Source: Escherichia phage EJP2
Length of the DNA stretch: 64,000 nucleotides
Direction: 5' to 3' (one strand)
Sequence record: OQ411014.1
A program made the translations under genes and the position numbers. The first letter of the stretch is position 1, and each line of letters starts with the position of its first letter. Positions 3,330 through 20,854 of this stretch are shown here, piece by piece. The notes beneath the pieces were generated by a model. That model did no database searches and had not been told where the DNA came from. It saw only the letters and a list, made by a program, of their open reading frames with translations.

Positions 3330-3808
3330 TGAAAAACGTACAACAATACATTCAGAACTTCACCGCATATCCAGTATCAGTAATGTTCGGACATATCGAT
3401 ACACCTACTCCTAAGCAGAAGAAAGCGGAGAAACGTGTAGCAGAAATCTGTGAAGAACTGTATCGTTTTGATTGTACAGTACTATCAGATGTGCGAGCAG
3501 CATTCCGCGAGTTAGATGTTCTTATCTCCTTGAGTGATGATAAGTTCCGCATCAAGCAAGTGCGTCTAACTCGTATGACTGGTCGTTTGGCATATTTTGT
3601 TGACAAAGCGGTTGTAATGCTCGATAATATGCACAAGAAAGACCAGCAACTTCAGCAGTACTGGCAACCGCTGTCAATGAAAGCTAAAGTACTGAAGGAT
3701 GAAATCAAATCATTCCTTATCCAGTACGATACTTCAGTTGATAAGATTGTATTACTGTCTGAATTTGACAATGCATACAAAGAAGCCCAAGAGGAAGATA
3801 AGAAATGA
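3329..3808 (+). CDS. hypothetical protein
   Basis: 159 aa; TAATG-type coupling with upstream gene. Confidence 0.6.
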   Translation: MKNVQQYIQNFTAYPVSVMFGHIDTPTPKQKKAEKRVAEICEELYRFDCTVLSDVRAAFRELDVLISLSDDKFRIKQVRLTRMTGRLAYFVDKAVVMLDNMHKKDQQLQQYWQPLSMKAKVLKDEIKSFLIQYDTSVDKIVLLSEFDNAYKEAQEEDKK

Positions 3809-4305
3809 CAACTGTTTTCGTGAGTAAAGAATTAGGAATTGCTATTACTGACTCACGAGCCACGTTTCAAGAGTCCAGGAAGTTTCTTGGGCTTTTTAAC
3901 TTGACTCCATTACCATCGTATAAAGTTGTGAATCAAAAGGCTTTGTATGTTCATGACCGTTTATTCTTAGCATGTGGAAGTGTAGATACTATTGATAAAG
4001 TATTGCAATATTTCATCGACGGTACTAAGTTCAAGATAAACAAGAAAACTCCAAGCTGTGAGTGTCTTCTTCTTGGTAAAGAATACGGTGTACACTTGTA
4101 CGTGTGGAATGGTAAGATTCATAAGAAGACTATCTTCTTGGCGTATAATTTTGTACACTTCATGGGGTCTGGTAGTTCTGCCCTACTCAGAAAGTACTAC
4201 AAGACTTTAGAACGTAATACACCAGATGAAGTTATTGATATTTTCAAGACTGTACATTTGGATGATAGCTTCACTGACGATAACGTAAATTTATACAGAA
4301 TCTAG
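3805..4305 (+). CDS. hypothetical protein
   Basis: 166 aa; ATGA overlap with upstream gene. Confidence 0.6.
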   Translation: MTTVFVSKELGIAITDSRATFQESRKFLGLFNLTPLPSYKVVNQKALYVHDRLFLACGSVDTIDKVLQYFIDGTKFKINKKTPSCECLLLGKEYGVHLYVWNGKIHKKTIFLAYNFVHFMGSGSSALLRKYYKTLERNTPDEVIDIFKTVHLDDSFTDDNVNLYRI

Positions 4306-4334
4306 TTGACAGTCTAAAAGAGATATCATATAAT
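4306..4334 (+). promoter_or_regulatory. sigma70-type promoter
   Basis: TTGACA-N17-TATAAT (ttgacagtctaaaagagatatcatataat). Confidence 0.65.
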
Positions 4335-4364
4335 CATTGCATACCACAACGAGAGAGAAACAAA

Positions 4365-4511
4365 ATGAGTACATTCATCGTAGAATATGTTCTGACTGGT
4401 CAAAGCATCTGGCAGGTACAAATGGTAAAAGCATGTAATAAAGAGCAAGCCCAGAGCACGCTCAAGAAAATGATTTCTGGTGTAGTAACCACCAAAGCAT
4501 ACCCAGCATAA
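4365..4511 (+). CDS. hypothetical small protein (48 aa), below ORF-track cutoff
   Basis: ATG with RBS gagagag upstream, flanked by promoter 4306-4334 and terminator 4526-4554; preferred over the antisense 4326-4562 ORF. Confidence 0.4.
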   Translation: MSTFIVEYVLTGQSIWQVQMVKACNKEQAQSTLKKMISGVVTTKAYPA

Positions 4512-4525
4512 TTTAGAGCTATAAT

Positions 4526-4554
4526 GAATCCGCTCTGTGCGGATTCTTTTTTTT
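4526..4554 (+). terminator. rho-independent terminator
   Basis: hairpin gaatccgc-tctgt-gcggattc followed by T8. Confidence 0.7.
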
Positions 4555-4573
4555 AATATCAAAGGAGAAAGTA

Positions 4574-5566
4574 ATGACTGTAAAACAACTCAATCTAGAA
4601 TCTATTCAAGACGATATCATGGATGAATGTTTTGTAAATGAAAACAATACGTTCGAGCGTATTAGTGAACAGTCACATGACAGTACTGAAGAAGTAGAAG
4701 AAAGTACTGATGACGTAGGTTCTTTCAAGACTTACAACACATCTAGCGTTTTACCAGAAGGTGAGACGAATGAATCTATTATTCGTTTAATCCGTGACGG
4801 TATCAATGTGAAGCGTAACATTGACCTTATCGTACGTAACAACGTAGGCTTAGTATATAGCCAAGCACGTCAGTGTACTTGTAATATCCCATTCCAAGAT
4901 AAAGCACAGTACGCTTTTGAAGGTCTAATGCGTGCAATCCATCGTTATGATGTGAATCAGAATATTCTTTTCAGTACTTACGCTACTGTGTCTATTCGCC
5001 AAACACTCTATAACTTTGGTAATGATGAAGTTCGTCTAATCAGTATTCCACGTCACTTGTCAGTGGATAACATCAAGATTCAGAACTACATTGAGAAGCA
5101 TCGTTCTAAGTTCGGTCGTACCCCAAGTGAAGATGAAATCAGTACTGCTACTGGCATCAAGTTATCCGCAGTGAAACGTGTAGTGCAGTACATGAACAGT
5201 AAGCCAATGAGTTTCGATACTCCAATGGGTTCTGACAGTACTGAAAACGATATGAGCTTAGTGGATGTAATCCCAGGAACTTCCAATGATTACACACTAA
5301 GTGCAGATACAGTTCAGAAAGCACCACTAGATGTAATTGCATTGGTCATGTCTGAACTACCAGAAGAAGAGCAGTTGCTGATCAATAAGATTCACGGCTT
5401 GAATGGACATGAAGAAAGTACTTTTATTGCTCTAGAGACTGCTGGATTGGTAGATGCGAAGGGTAAGAAGCTAACTAACCGTTGCACTATTCATCGTCGT
5501 TACAATGCAATACTGGATAAGATTCGTAATATTCTAAAAGCACGTGACATTTCATTCGATGACTGA
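4574..5566 (+). CDS. sigma-70 family RNA polymerase sigma factor (phage-encoded)
   Basis: 330 aa; region-2-like FSTYATVSIRQTLYNF (compare FSTYATWWIRQ of sigma70) and a C-terminal HTH-like region-4 segment; acidic N-terminus. Confidence 0.65.
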   Translation: MTVKQLNLESIQDDIMDECFVNENNTFERISEQSHDSTEEVEESTDDVGSFKTYNTSSVLPEGETNESIIRLIRDGINVKRNIDLIVRNNVGLVYSQARQCTCNIPFQDKAQYAFEGLMRAIHRYDVNQNILFSTYATVSIRQTLYNFGNDEVRLISIPRHLSVDNIKIQNYIEKHRSKFGRTPSEDEISTATGIKLSAVKRVVQYMNSKPMSFDTPMGSDSTENDMSLVDVIPGTSNDYTLSADTVQKAPLDVIALVMSELPEEEQLLINKIHGLNGHEESTFIALETAGLVDAKGKKLTNRCTIHRRYNAILDKIRNILKARDISFDD

Positions 5567-5730: not shown

Positions 5731-6102
5731 ATGTTGCACAAAGTTGAAGGTTCAAAGCACAATTGGATTGACGAATACGATATCTATGTTGGGTATGATA
5801 CTTCCCCGTGTTGTTGTGAATATGCGGATTACTTCTTGAGTTATGAGATTGAGAGGAATGGAGTACCAGACGAAGAACTAATTGATAAAAGTACTTTCAA
5901 ATGGGAAGAATACGACTTCTATCCATTCGCATCTGCACTGATCGAAAACGTCCCAGGACTTGATGAAGGTGCTATTGCGATGTTCCCAATGATCCACAAA
6001 ACGACTTCCCGTATGGTGTACTTGCACTTGTTTAACGCTCACAATGGTTATTACAGCCACGGGTTCGAAAGCAATACATTCATTGGTAACGGTTCTTTAT
6101 AA
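5731..6102 (+). CDS. hypothetical protein
   Basis: 123 aa; RBS aggaa upstream. Confidence 0.6.
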   Translation: MLHKVEGSKHNWIDEYDIYVGYDTSPCCCEYADYFLSYEIERNGVPDEELIDKSTFKWEEYDFYPFASALIENVPGLDEGAIAMFPMIHKTTSRMVYLHLFNAHNGYYSHGFESNTFIGNGSL

Positions 6103-12776: not shown

Positions 12777-12950
12777 ATGAAAAAATGTACACTTTATGTA
12801 TTGGCTTTTAGTATCTTTGCTGTACTGACATATTTTTCATTTTCTATCAAAGAAAGTTCTTCCCTTTGGGTATTCGTTGTGTTAGAATTCTTTTCGTTGG
12901 CAGTGACAATGTTGTTCATCGAACTATATTGTCGTTACATTAAAACTTAA
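12777..12950 (+). CDS. hypothetical small membrane protein (57 aa)
   Basis: ATG after RBS aagagg; two hydrophobic helices; not in ORF track. Confidence 0.35.
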   Translation: MKKCTLYVLAFSIFAVLTYFSFSIKESSSLWVFVVLEFFSLAVTMLFIELYCRYIKT

Positions 12951-12964
12951 ATGAGATACTAACC

Positions 12965-13600
12965 ATGACTAAACAAGATATTTTCAAAACTGTAATCAAT
13001 GCTCTTCGGTCTGAAGAAGTTCGTTGTATGATGGAATACAACATCAATAAAGCCACTGACGCTATCGTTCCTGTTATTGAAGCTGCTGGCCTGGTGTTCG
13101 TTGGTATTGGTATGTATTCTGTCGTTGTGGAGCATCCTAAGTACCCTGGACGTGTGTTTAAGGTTAGTACTTCACGTTGGGATGGTTTCCGTGAGTACGC
13201 TAAGTACTGCAAAGATAACAGCAACAAACCATTTGTACCTGCTATCTATAGTGCTGAAGTTAAAGGTAACTTCGCATGGTATGAGATGGACAAATACTTC
13301 TCAATCATGAAGGCTGATGAATCTGATTTCGTAAGCAACAAAGCAGATGAAATGTATTCCTTTGCTAATGCTGGTCAGTACGGTTCATCTCTTCGTGAAG
13401 AGATGGATGTACAACAGGATCGTATGGATATCTACAACTTCGCTAAGGAGTTAGAAAGTGCATACGGTTCGCGTTTCACGCTGGACATTCACACTGGCAA
13501 TATCATGATGGATGTATTCGGTAACTTCTTTATCACTGACCCACTTGCTGGTGATTTACGCCGCGAGATTCCAGTACTGGAAGAAGATCCAGTATTCTAA
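12965..13600 (+). CDS. hypothetical protein with protein-kinase-like motifs
   Basis: 211 aa; Gly-loop-like GIGMYSV, Lys in VFKV ~15 aa later, catalytic-loop-like DIHTGNIMMD, DFG-like ITDP; unverified. Confidence 0.55.
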   Translation: MTKQDIFKTVINALRSEEVRCMMEYNINKATDAIVPVIEAAGLVFVGIGMYSVVVEHPKYPGRVFKVSTSRWDGFREYAKYCKDNSNKPFVPAIYSAEVKGNFAWYEMDKYFSIMKADESDFVSNKADEMYSFANAGQYGSSLREEMDVQQDRMDIYNFAKELESAYGSRFTLDIHTGNIMMDVFGNFFITDPLAGDLRREIPVLEEDPVF

Positions 13601-14235: not shown

Positions 14236-14543
14236 ACGAAATGAAACAGGTTATTATTGCAACGTTTGTATTTTTACTATTCACTCCAGTAACTTATGCT
14301 GGTATCAATCTGGATTGTGTACTCACTAATTCATCTGGTGCAAAGATGCAGATCAATACCAGACAGACCTTTGGTGAATCTTATATTGAGTCAGATGCTT
14401 ATATCAACTTCAAAGCAGTGGACTTTGTTGAAGGCTCGTTCATCAACTCCAACATGGTACTGGATAAGATTACTCTCAAGGGAGTGTTCAGTACTCAAAA
14501 GGATAACGGTAAAACCCATCACGCAATGGTAGATTGTAACTAA
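14229..14543 (+). CDS. putative secreted protein
   Basis: 104 aa; signal peptide ...FTPVTYA. Confidence 0.55.
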   Translation: MVNEMKQVIIATFVFLLFTPVTYAGINLDCVLTNSSGAKMQINTRQTFGESYIESDAYINFKAVDFVEGSFINSNMVLDKITLKGVFSTQKDNGKTHHAMVDCN

Positions 14544-14638
14544 GAGGAAAGCTAAGTTATGACGTACTTATCTATTGCAGTTGTTGTATTTTTAGTTTTA
14601 GTCGTTTGTGCATTTGGGTATCTCATGACTAAAGGTGA

Positions 14639-14833
14639 TTGAATGTGAAATACATATTAGTCCTACTAGTATTATTCACTACATGCACAAATGCTAGTGC
14701 ATTGAAGGAGCAGAAATTCTTTGTATCCTTCTTTGCACCAGTACAAACGAAGCACATTAAATGGACGTATAATTCAAATCTACTAGAGTTGAATGAGCAC
14801 AGGATTGGATTCGTTATCAATTACGTGTGGTGA
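14639..14833 (+). CDS. putative secreted small protein
   Basis: 64 aa; signal-like N-terminus. Confidence 0.45.
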   Translation: MNVKYILVLLVLFTTCTNASALKEQKFFVSFFAPVQTKHIKWTYNSNLLELNEHRIGFVINYVW

Positions 14834-14856
14834 ATAACAATTCAGTACTGAAGAAT

Positions 14857-14882
14857 GGGTTGACTTAGGTCAGCCCTTTTGT
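14857..14882 (+). terminator. rho-independent terminator with embedded promoter elements (cassette family)
   Basis: gggttgac-ttag-gtcagccc + T-run; TTGACT then ttataaat 17-18 nt downstream. Confidence 0.65.
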
Positions 14883-14935
14883 TATAAATAACGGTATAGA
14901 AAAACACTATATGAAATCTATGGAGAGAAATCAAA

Positions 14936-16456
14936 ATGCCAAATGATATGAAACACAAGAATGGTGCATTAGTACAACACTCTGACAAATGGAGTGAAGC
15001 TAATCGTCGTAAGAATTCACACAACGCAGGCCAAGGATCTCGTGGCTCTCGCAATCAGGGGACTGGTGAAGCTGGTAAAGCTAATACAGTTGCTTCTGGT
15101 GGTATGGACACTTCCAATATGTCTCAACATGAGAAACTAAAGTACTTCAACAGTTTAGGACTCCTAAACCCTACACAGAAGAAGCAATTACAAGACATGG
15201 ACGCTGCTGCATCTGCACCAAAAGAACAGCCACAGCAAGCTCCTAAAGCTGCTCCTGCTGGTAATCCTGTCAAAGAGCTATCTGATAACTTAGGTCGTAT
15301 CTTTGCACAGAAGCCTAATCTAATTCAAGGTATTGTAAAAGAACTACAAGCAGTACCGAAGGAAGAGCTAAAGAGTAAAGCACAAGCTGTACTTGATGCT
15401 ATGAAAGGCAATCGCAGTACTGAACCAACCGAAGTATTCAGTACTATCATGCGTGCACTTCAAGCTAAACCACAAGCTGCTCCAGCACAGAAAGCACCTA
15501 AGATGGACAGTGCACAGGACATGTCAGATTTGTTTGGTAAAGTTGGTGCTGAAGGTAAGAACAACGCACAACAAGTCAAGAACGTCCAAGCTAAGATTAT
15601 TGATCGTTTAGGTGATAATCAAGACAAGACTAAGCGGGCATTTGACGCATTGAACAAAGCACTTGAATCTTATGTTCCTGGTGAGAAAGACAAGTTCCAG
15701 ACCATCATGAACGCAGTCTTTGGTGAAATGAAGAAGTACGAAGCAGAGCACGGTGAGAAGGTATCATCTGATGGCTATATGATTCGTAAAGACGAAGAAG
15801 GTGCAGTAGACCAGAAAGATGCTCCTAAAGAGCAAGAAGACCTACCTGATACAGTTGATATGGATGGTTACATTTCTCGTCCAGATGAATATGACTTCGG
15901 TTCAGACAAAGAAGGTTATGAGTATGCTATGGACATTTATCGTTTCCTAGCTAAGAACTATGATTATGCTAACAAGTACGTAGATCAGTTTGTCAGTGCT
16001 TGGGATAATTACAAAGATAAAGGTTATGACTTCCCTGCGGAAGCTGCATTCTTTGAGTTAGGTAAACTACTCCAGAAAGATGGTGTAGAGATTGGCTCGA
16101 AAGAAGATACTTCTAGTCTAGATGCAGAATTGGCAAAAGACCGTCAAATGACACCAGGTTCTAAAGCTGAATTGAATAAGCTCCTATCATGGATTGTTGA
16201 CATTGGTAAAAATGCTGGTAAAGATAACAAGAGTATCAACCGCAGTATTTCTTGGATCAATAATAAAATTGATAACAACGGGCGTAAGCTACAGAAAGCA
16301 TGGAGTGATTTAGTCAATGGTGCAGATGAGATCGATATTGATTCTCCTGAAGCATATGAGTATGCGATGACGACTCTAGACAATTCCTTCCAGGACTATG
16401 AAAATGGTAATCTAACTGCTAGTGAACAAGACATCATGCGTTCACACGGAAAATAA
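14936..16456 (+). CDS. hypothetical protein, low-complexity Lys/Ala/Gln-rich
   Basis: 506 aa, largest plus-strand ORF; repetitive PKxxxxAPA segments; acidic C-terminal part; RBS gagag. Confidence 0.65.
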   Translation: MPNDMKHKNGALVQHSDKWSEANRRKNSHNAGQGSRGSRNQGTGEAGKANTVASGGMDTSNMSQHEKLKYFNSLGLLNPTQKKQLQDMDAAASAPKEQPQQAPKAAPAGNPVKELSDNLGRIFAQKPNLIQGIVKELQAVPKEELKSKAQAVLDAMKGNRSTEPTEVFSTIMRALQAKPQAAPAQKAPKMDSAQDMSDLFGKVGAEGKNNAQQVKNVQAKIIDRLGDNQDKTKRAFDALNKALESYVPGEKDKFQTIMNAVFGEMKKYEAEHGEKVSSDGYMIRKDEEGAVDQKDAPKEQEDLPDTVDMDGYISRPDEYDFGSDKEGYEYAMDIYRFLAKNYDYANKYVDQFVSAWDNYKDKGYDFPAEAAFFELGKLLQKDGVEIGSKEDTSSLDAELAKDRQMTPGSKAELNKLLSWIVDIGKNAGKDNKSINRSISWINNKIDNNGRKLQKAWSDLVNGADEIDIDSPEAYEYAMTTLDNSFQDYENGNLTASEQDIMRSHGK

Positions 16457-19641: not shown

Positions 19642-19677
19642 AAGAAAAAAGGAGACTTTGTAGTCTCCTTTCTTTTT
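19641..19677. terminator. bidirectional rho-independent terminator between convergent genes
   Basis: A-run, hairpin aaaggagact-ttgt-agtctccttt, T-run. Confidence 0.7.
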
Positions 19678-20854
19678 ATGGTAAATCAAATTCCGTATAT
19701 GAATATTTGTATACACCATCTGGTCCACGACCTGAGTATCGTAATTTACCAGAAGTAGTTATATATGCTGAAGTAATATTACTAGTACTGAATATGTTAA
19801 ACACTGACTTCATATCATTCACTGTACCGTTACCGAATGGTATCAGGTTAAGTTCATTGCCGTTGACACCAGTACTCAATCTTCCTGAAGAATTTGCTCC
19901 ACAACCATATGCATTTGATGGGCTAAGAGCAACGTAACCAGTATTACTAGTATAATAACTTAGTAAACCAATAAAATTCTCTGTAGTGGCTATTTCAGTA
20001 AAGACTCTAATATTGACAGAACTATTCACTCCATTACCTAAGTTTCCAGCATTCTGGCTTCCCGCAGCATATAGATGTGTTTTACCAGTACCGTCACTGT
20101 ACAATATTGTGAATGCTGATTCAGTTAGACCAATATCAAAAACACTAAGACCTGGGTCTGGTAGTGGTACTTGTGTTAGCACATTTATTCTTGTATCTGG
20201 ATGACCAATACCGAGTTGACCAAATGAGTTTGAACCTGAAACCCAAACACTTAAATCATTTTTTAATATCAGTACTGATGAATTAACAAATTCAACTTTT
20301 TGAACATCTGATGTAAGTTTTGAGAAAGTAGTTAGTGCAAGATAATTACCAGTTGCTAGTTGGCCTTGGTTATTAAAACCGCTTCTATAAAGATCACCAT
20401 TGTTCATTAATATATATAATGCATATACACCAGCATGAACAGATGTTATTTGATTAAGATTCCCTGTACCTATACCAGCTTCAATAAATGGGGTACAATC
20501 AGTATATGATGTCACAACTTCAGTAGATGATGTATTGCCAGTTTGAAAGCTACGGCGACCAGTATATAATAATTTTCCATCCATAGTTTTAATGATAACA
20601 AAACTTGTGTTTGTACACCAAACATCTTGAACATCATCTCTGATTAAAGTCCACTCTAGCTTTTGTTCTGTTGGCTTTCCATCCCCATAGATATAATTAT
20701 CAACTGTTCCTCCACCGATACCATACAATCTGTTATCATCATATAATACCATAAATGCCGGACGAGACGATGCATAAGGTACTAATATTTTTGTAATTTC
20801 AGGTAATGAAGGTGCTTTATTACCATAATTAAGCATTCGTACAAAAGGTAACAT
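19676..20854 (-). CDS. RCC1-like beta-propeller protein, N-terminal MLPFVRMLNYGN (distal member of paralog family)
   Basis: 392 aa; motifs WVSGSNSFGQLGIGH and YRSGFNNQGQLATGN; conserved leader/N-terminus shared with array at 33.4-50.4 kb. Confidence 0.8.
   Translation of the reverse strand: MLPFVRMLNYGNKAPSLPEITKILVPYASSRPAFMVLYDDNRLYGIGGGTVDNYIYGDGKPTEQKLEWTLIRDDVQDVWCTNTSFVIIKTMDGKLLYTGRRSFQTGNTSSTEVVTSYTDCTPFIEAGIGTGNLNQITSVHAGVYALYILMNNGDLYRSGFNNQGQLATGNYLALTTFSKLTSDVQKVEFVNSSVLILKNDLSVWVSGSNSFGQLGIGHPDTRINVLTQVPLPDPGLSVFDIGLTESAFTILYSDGTGKTHLYAAGSQNAGNLGNGVNSSVNIRVFTEIATTENFIGLLSYYTSNTGYVALSPSNAYGCGANSSGRLSTGVNGNELNLIPFGNGTVNDMKSVFNIFSTSNITSAYITTSGKLRYSGRGPDGVYKYSYTEFDLP

Follow-up and report, generated by a model that had tools for sequence, protein, structure and literature searches.

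A predicted kinase-only homologue of the phage T7 protein kinase gp0.7 in the jumbo phage EJP2

The stretch of Escherichia phage EJP2 analysed here (64,000 nucleotides of sequence record OQ411014.1, hereafter the window) has a G+C content of 37.3% and consists mostly of unidirectional arrays of small unannotated open reading frames (ORFs) on the + strand. One such array contains an ATG-initiated ORF for a protein of 211 amino acids (aa), whose translation in the ORF listing is the same as the one on which the original prediction of a possible protein-kinase-like protein was based, and which sequence comparisons identify as a homologue of the T7 protein kinase gp0.7 (T7K; UniProt P00513) reduced to the kinase domain. 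Two opposite-strand ORFs that overlap it are without support. The array is closed by a hairpin resembling an intrinsic terminator, followed by a T4-type late-promoter motif and the gene of a virion structural protein (Table 1). No tRNA genes were found in the window.

Profile searches against PHROGs matched the 211-aa protein over residues 1-211 to phrog_15752 (E 4.4e-50), the description of which is the classical T7 gp0.7 annotation, and also to phrog_2828 (E 5.1e-11), the family holding T7 gp0.7 itself; the latter value is below the 1e-10 threshold that PMC13645617 applies to this family. The Pfam family PF27024 (Phage_T7_kinase) is precomputed for the exact 211-aa sequence as well as for every homologue that we found, among them the gp0.7 proteins of T7-like phages with their 330-400 aa. 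BLASTP recovered T7M gp0.7 (E 1e-12) and T7 gp0.7 (E 1e-10), the latter homologous over residues ~41-209. A tblastn search of 50,697 phage records matched 200 of them: six full-length matches at 53-56% identity come from jumbo phages of E. coli, Salmonella and Klebsiella with genomes of 320-373 kb (121Q, Sharanji and SHEFM2K among them), four of these six being annotated as protein kinase, and the remaining matches, of 20-29% identity (E ~1e-5 to 9e-13), are to the gp0.7 genes of T7-like podophages. Megablast of 3 kb of the window against the same records gave no match; hence, the phage has no close sequenced relative among them. The sequence profiles place the kinase-like protein of the original prediction in the phage T7 gp0.7 kinase family (PF27024; PHROG 2828/15752), with PHROG, PF27024 and BLASTP matches to T7-type kinases.

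Several other collections gave no such match. A local copy of Pfam-A, which lacks PF27024, did not match the 211-aa protein even at E<=10; this is not evidence against its membership because authentic T7 gp0.7 is also unmatched there. NCBIfam likewise gave no match, and the PADLOC defence-system models (e.g. Stk2-type) matched with 0 families at E<=1. Among the sequences of the PDB, a search with the single protein returned only E~1 matches to de novo designed proteins, while a 54-sequence profile of the protein and its homologues had a sole match (E 0.75), which aligns the catalytic loop to a 'protein kinase domain-containing protein'. Members of the T7-kinase family appear to lack a solved structure.

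To compare the catalytic residues we used an alignment of 54 homologues (24 jumbo-type and 30 T7-type, with 18-59% identity to the query). Invariant throughout are G47, G49, H57, K66, D73, Y78, C82, P92, D174, H176, N179, M181, I190 and D192, and T191 and P193 are kept in at least 90% of the homologues. When T7 gp0.7 is added to the alignment its residues map one-to-one onto those of the 211-aa protein. The four motifs quoted in the original prediction are all present in the translation: VGIGMYSVVVE at residues 46-56 (with G47 and G49), RVFKV at 63-67 (K66), LDIHTGNIMMD at 173-183 (D174, H176 and N179) and ITDPLAG at 190-196 (D192). Their order and spacing are canonical for kinases, with 17 residues from G49 to K66, where about 15 had been given, 5 from D174 to N179 and 18 from D174 to D192. 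The corresponding pairs in protein kinase A are D166-N171 and D166-D184. The presence of this set of motifs in a protein of 211 aa is far above chance, given that the same residues are invariant in the 54 homologues and that the whole-protein similarity to the T7-kinase families is highly significant. The segment described as resembling a catalytic loop is equivalent to D195-x-H197-x-x-N200 of T7K and placed between strands 171-173 and 180-182 of the structural model described below; the catalytic base, though, is most likely D174 of 'LDIH' and not the histidine of the H-x-G-N pattern that had been named. The DFG-like metal-binding motif is also upheld, as D192-P193-L194 maps onto D213-P214-V215 of T7K, in which DPV is the DFG equivalent (PMC13645617). 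G49 corresponds to G76 of T7K, the residue altered in the catalytically dead G76F allele used by Bartolec et al. (PMC13645617).

Table 1. Positions of the predicted kinase gene, its motifs and other features of the window
Feature	Position	Strand	Basis or remark
Coding sequence of the predicted 211-aa T7K-type (gp0.7-like) protein kinase, kinase domain only	12965..13600	+	ORF, profiles, BLASTP, AlphaFold2 model
Glycine-rich loop G47-I-G49 (T7K G74-N-G76)	13103..13111	+	Invariant in 54/54 homologues
K66, predicted ATP-anchoring lysine on strand β3 (counterpart of the VAIK lysine; T7K K93)	13160..13162	+	Invariant; within strand 63-68 of the model
Catalytic loop D174-I-H176-T-G-N179 (T7K D195-M-H197-S-G-N200)	13484..13501	+	D, H and N invariant in 54/54 homologues
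DFG equivalent D192-P193-L194, then A195 at the position of T7K Ser216	13538..13549	+	Maps to T7K D213-P214-V215-S216
σ70-type promoter-like site GTGACA-16-TATATT (10/12)	12903..12930	+	Consensus match; 35 nt 5' of the kinase ATG, inside the end of the upstream small ORF
Further examples of σ70-consensus sites	3011, 4306, 9538, 21732, 53758, 56253, 58964, 60592, 61468, 61807	+	Consensus match
Intrinsic-terminator-like hairpin GGGTTGAC-TTAG-GTCAGCCC, then TTTTGTT	14857..14886	+	Closes the small-gene array holding the kinase gene
T4-type late-promoter motif TATAAATA	14883..14890	+	After the terminator-like hairpin, 46 nt 5' of the virion-protein gene
Virion structural protein of ~500 aa (506 aa)	14936..16456	+	phrog_20398, E 1.7e-155; also at 3358..4845 of the 121Q locus (L001) and 3397..4932 of locus L012
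ORFs overlapping the kinase ORF	12940..13227 and 12959..13135	−	No support
Intergenic stretch, with small ORFs, from the end of the kinase array to the virion-protein gene	14543..14936		~111-bp indel among metagenomic copies
Phage σ70-family sigma factor, 330 aa	4574..5566	+	Sigma70_r2 and Sigma70_r3 above Pfam cut-offs; phrog_351, E 8e-51
HNH/homing endonuclease, 365 aa	25910..27007	+	phrog_559, E 7.6e-26
Tandem paralogous ORFs (~15), 298-465 aa	33386..50396	−	PHROG 4219/7220 in the six scanned
Further copy of the tandem paralogues	19676..20854	−	

An AlphaFold2 model built from the 54-homologue alignment has a mean predicted local distance difference test score (pLDDT) of 93.5 and a predicted template modelling score (pTM) of 0.89. 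In a Foldseek search with this model the best 50 PDB matches are all protein kinases (AEK1, MEK1, ROCK, PknI, CK1, ASK1 and CHK1) or aminoglycoside phosphotransferases (APHs), with a probability of 0.99-1.00. Among the predicted viral structures of BFVD, where the superposition compares predicted structures only, the kinases of T7-like phages of Pantoea, Yersinia and Pectobacterium match at query-normalised template modelling (TM) scores of 0.73-0.81, with a root-mean-square deviation of 2.7-3.6 Å over ~200 columns, and a 213-aa jumbo-type homologue superposes at a TM score of 0.92. The protein-kinase-like fold expected from the original prediction is thus what the model displays. It comprises three N-terminal helices (residues 3-40) followed by strands β1-β3, which bear the GxG loop and K66, then one αC-like helix (75-84), two strands and two helices, and finally the catalytic and Mg-binding strands. 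Beyond D192 there are 19 residues, which end in one short strand and a 14-residue tail, there being no secondary structure after residue 197; an activation segment, an APE motif and helices αF-αI are absent from the model. We presume that K66 pairs with D73 in a salt bridge and, as a guess, that the three-helix N-terminal extension takes the place of αF.

These features set the 211-aa protein apart from the Hanks-type kinases, such as PknB of M. tuberculosis and MAPK (PF00069), which show no significant sequence match to it: it has D-x-H in place of HRD, DPL in place of DFG, neither activation segment and APE motif nor αF-αI, and an extra three-helix N-terminal extension. We rejected membership in PF00069 (Pkinase) given the empty Pfam result, the E 0.75 of the PDB profile search and the C-lobe missing from the model. 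Membership in the APH/choline kinase family was also rejected, as neither Pfam nor NCBIfam gave a match and the likeness to APH structures, at TM scores of 0.36-0.40, is confined to the common kinase core. The model hence assigns the 211-aa protein to the protein-kinase-like superfamily, outside the Hanks-type kinases. A weaker kinase-like structural match in BFVD is H6X4G3, an uncharacterised 194-aa protein of Klebsiella phage RaK2 (E 7e-5, TM score 0.50), and the Sharanji genome paper mentions a second kinase of unknown function (PMC11895373); a more divergent kinase may thus be present in such jumbo phages besides the T7K-like one. Among the 608 stop-to-stop ORFs of the window, no further T7K-like paralogue was found.

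T7K and the 211-aa protein have identical catalytic residues, DP-x in place of DFG (DPV in T7K, DPL here), the same truncated C-lobe and an N-terminal helical extension. They differ in overall architecture and in the genome that carries them. T7K is a 359-aa protein of a 40-kb Autographiviridae genome with a C-terminal shutoff/DNA-binding (SO) domain at residues 243-359, whereas the 211-aa protein, carried by a jumbo myovirus-type genome, has its last residue 2 positions beyond the conserved 'DP' at the end of the kinase domain and thus lacks the 117-residue SO domain. A hidden Markov model of the SO domain, derived from 25 T7-like kinases, found nothing significant in the 608 stop-to-stop ORFs (best E 1.4), so a split gene with the SO domain encoded elsewhere in the window was rejected. 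The SO domain marks the T7 architecture and not the kinase family, and the published jumbo members also lack it: according to Bartolec et al. (Nature 2026) the jumbo homologues of Munch and G17 have lost this domain, and the third position of DPV is less conserved (PMC13645617). The kinase domain of T7K alone (1-242) is soluble and active, and a ΔSO phage still yields ~31% of the wild-type phosphopeptides (PMC13645617).

The closest counterparts of the EJP2 protein are the kinase-only homologues of the 121Q type (121Q gp205, Sharanji WNN14432.1 and those of G17 and Salmonella phage Munch), which have 213-224 aa, the same architecture, the same PHROG 15752 and 54-58% identity over the full length. 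Across the jumbo clade 32 columns are invariant, including an acidic tail, DLRREIPxTExDP. A further distinction from T7K concerns its autophosphorylation serines: S216, which is inhibitory, S218 and S227 align with A195, D197 and E206, respectively, and the final 20 residues of the EJP2 protein contain no Ser, Thr or Tyr at all. At the Ser216-equivalent position all 30 T7-like kinases have Ser, while the 24 jumbo sequences have Ala (15), Gly (7) or Ser (2), with Ser being kept in 121Q (DPLSCD). Ser216 has been stated to be 'conserved in all variants' (PMC13645617); this statement fails for the wider sample of the jumbo clade, as only 2 of its 24 members have Ser.

The exact 211-aa protein occurs on 17 contigs from several independent sequencing runs. 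Six near-identical metagenomic copies show only 0-2 synonymous changes, and since these copies were selected for an identical protein they are uninformative on purifying selection. A ~111-bp indel (L005 versus L006/L010) distinguishes metagenomic copies that are otherwise near-identical; it falls in the intergenic stretch, itself with small ORFs, that leads from the last small gene in the kinase array to the gene of the virion protein. Members of the clade are few. In IMG/VR the kinase is encoded on three jumbo contigs of 349-366 kb, and a scan for relatives across 185,579 representative bacterial genomes came back empty.

With respect to genomic context, the kinase region is loosely syntenic with genes 198-220 of 121Q, and the neighbourhoods of the 121Q-type homologues are alike in having small unidirectional ORF arrays with the ~500-aa virion protein nearby; farther kinase-only homologues (40-42% identity) occupy similar small-ORF arrays. 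The immediate neighbours of the kinase gene differ from those in 121Q and have no Pfam or PHROG function, for which reason we rejected a conserved functional partner beside it. In three divergent lineages the gene of the virion protein lies no more than ~1.5 kb from that of the kinase, on its downstream side in EJP2 and on its upstream side in 121Q and L012. With 61-67% identity the virion protein has diverged less than the kinase, and it contains low-complexity Gly/Ser/Gln- and Ala/Pro/Gln-rich stretches. We treat this proximity as synteny and not as a functional pair, because the virion gene is missing near the kinase in the available sequence of two other lineages and is preceded by a late promoter motif. 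Counting both strands, that motif, TATAAATA, has a single copy in the 64 kb where 9.4±2.5 would be expected; it also precedes the homologous virion genes of 121Q (gp199 and gp201) and L012, which suggests T4-like late transcription with strong avoidance of the motif elsewhere in the window. It is not associated with the kinase gene.

The sites upstream of the kinase gene are of a different kind. A σ70-like site matching at least 10 of the 12 consensus positions lies 27-48 nt 5' of the kinase start in 6/6 related loci, or in 7/7 divergent loci when EJP2 is included. Sites of this quality number 56 on the + strand of the window, against 21.9±5.1 expected from Markov-1 random sequences and 19 on the − strand; 12 sites are perfect TTGACA-N16/17-TATAAT, and most lie 20-60 nt 5' of small ORF starts, a density typical of densely promoted early gene arrays. 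Together, the σ70-type sites upstream and the confinement of TATAAATA to the virion gene suggest that the kinase is an early gene transcribed by host RNA polymerase, like gene 0.7 in T7. Both kinases would probably be early genes read from host-type promoters, E. coli promoters being annotated near gene 0.7 in T7M and T7. In the 121Q locus the annotated start of the 224-aa gp205 (L001 5968..6642) overlaps the conserved σ70-like promoter (5943-5972); the true start probably lies 11 codons further downstream than the one deposited, given this overlap and the fact that other members of the clade begin at the methionine of MTK... (L001 position 6001).

Elsewhere in the window, ~15 tandem paralogous ORFs fill 17 kb of the − strand, with a further copy apart from them. 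Each of the six paralogues scanned falls under PHROG 4219/7220, described as 'regulator of chromosome condensation' (RCC1-like β-propeller repeats), at E values as low as 2e-97; the paralogues represent a large expansion of one gene family. The + strand additionally encodes a phage σ70-family sigma factor and, among small-gene arrays, an HNH/homing endonuclease.

Given its family membership, conserved catalytic residues and predicted fold, the 211-aa protein is likely to be an active protein kinase of the T7K family. We predict a Ser/Thr, and probably also Tyr, kinase in which ATP would be held by the G47-x-G49 loop and K66, and Mg2+ by N179 and D192, as judged from homology and the model. D174 would serve as the catalytic base, with the phosphate passing to Ser/Thr and probably Tyr residues of host proteins, as in the studied homologues. 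From a σ70-type promoter of its own, the gene would be read early on by the host RNA polymerase, and phosphorylation of host proteins may aid the takeover of the cell, disarm anti-phage defences, or both, by analogy with T7K and JSS1_004. T7K, recently shown to be a broad, promiscuous anti-defence kinase, weakens Retron-Eco9 (PMC13645617) and, as cited in a passage of the Sharanji paper (PMC11895373), DarTG1, and JSS1_004 inactivates DndFGH. As it has no SO domain, the EJP2 kinase should not shut off host transcription in that way, nor should it concentrate on DNA or on substrates bound to nucleic acids. With Ala in place of Ser216, it is probably not switched off in the manner of T7K.

Certain observations weigh against this picture. 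Identity to T7K is only ~21-22%, and the promoter evidence for the kinase consists only of consensus matches. Moreover, Ser, Thr and Tyr make up 17.6% of the residues of the proteins encoded on the + strand of the window, a figure that shows no depletion and has no matched baseline, whereas a depletion of these residues has been reported as characteristic of early proteins in Autographiviridae that carry T7K; hence, promiscuity at the level of T7K is not supported. This last observation bears on a tentative alternative, namely that the protein is a T7K-type kinase of narrow specificity, directed at a few host transcription, RNA-processing or translation factors (RNA polymerase β', RNase III, RNase E) and not at proteome-wide anti-defence. 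Such a role would be in keeping with the classical gp0.7 annotation of the 121Q homologue and with the conserved surface features that the clade has of its own, namely the 32 invariant columns and the acidic tail. Yet every tested T7K homologue is hyper-promiscuous (PMC13645617), the model is without the P+1 loop and the αF-αG docking elements that would give canonical kinases their specificity, and the window suggests no dedicated substrate partner among the unannotated small ORFs next to the kinase gene, which are not conserved with 121Q.

The absence of much of the C-lobe might instead bring to mind a pseudokinase or ATP-binding scaffold that keeps the kinase fold and acts by binding a host protein. 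We regard this as very improbable: such proteins typically lose one or more catalytic residues, while here the catalytic Asp, the Mg-binding Asn and Asp, the Lys and the GxG loop are all invariant across the family, and T7K is very active despite having the same truncated C-lobe (PMC13645617). The APH matches notwithstanding, there is very little likelihood of a small-molecule kinase of the aminoglycoside, choline or sugar type acting on a metabolite, antibiotic or nucleotide-derived signal, as the sequence homology is specifically with T7K, whose protein kinase activity has been established by experiment, the TM scores of the T7-like phage kinases (0.73-0.81) are well above those of APHs (0.36-0.44), neither Pfam, NCBIfam nor PHROGs finds an APH/choline-kinase family, and the C-terminal helical subdomain that forms the APH/choline kinase substrate pocket is missing from the model.

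An active T7K-family kinase at this locus is an ordinary finding of modest importance, as its relatives have already been annotated and published: the 121Q homologue is annotated as a gp0.7-like protein kinase in GenBank, and the 2025 Sharanji genome paper recognizes a homologue of the T7 kinase in its own copy and proposes an anti-defence function for it (PMC11895373). By sequence, the EJP2 kinase adds a divergent member, with 55-58% identity to its nearest isolated counterparts, to a small, already named clade of kinase-only T7K homologues, and the lack of conservation of the inhibitory serine in this clade qualifies a statement in the published analysis. A natural 'ΔSO' variant without that serine could be a handy minimal enzyme with which to study or exploit promiscuous protein phosphorylation, and the lack of the DNA-binding shutoff domain might lower its toxicity. 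More speculatively, and we think it unlikely, the kinase-only T7K homologues of jumbo phages might constitute a functionally distinct sub-type, freely diffusing, DNA-independent and hyper-promiscuous, which has escaped self-inactivation of the T7K kind, given that in 22 of 24 members Ala or Gly stands in place of the inhibitory Ser216 and that the counterparts of S218 and S227 are acidic in EJP2. If this were true, the sub-type would sustain proteome-wide phosphorylation through the much longer infection cycle of jumbo phages, as a general anti-defence weapon.
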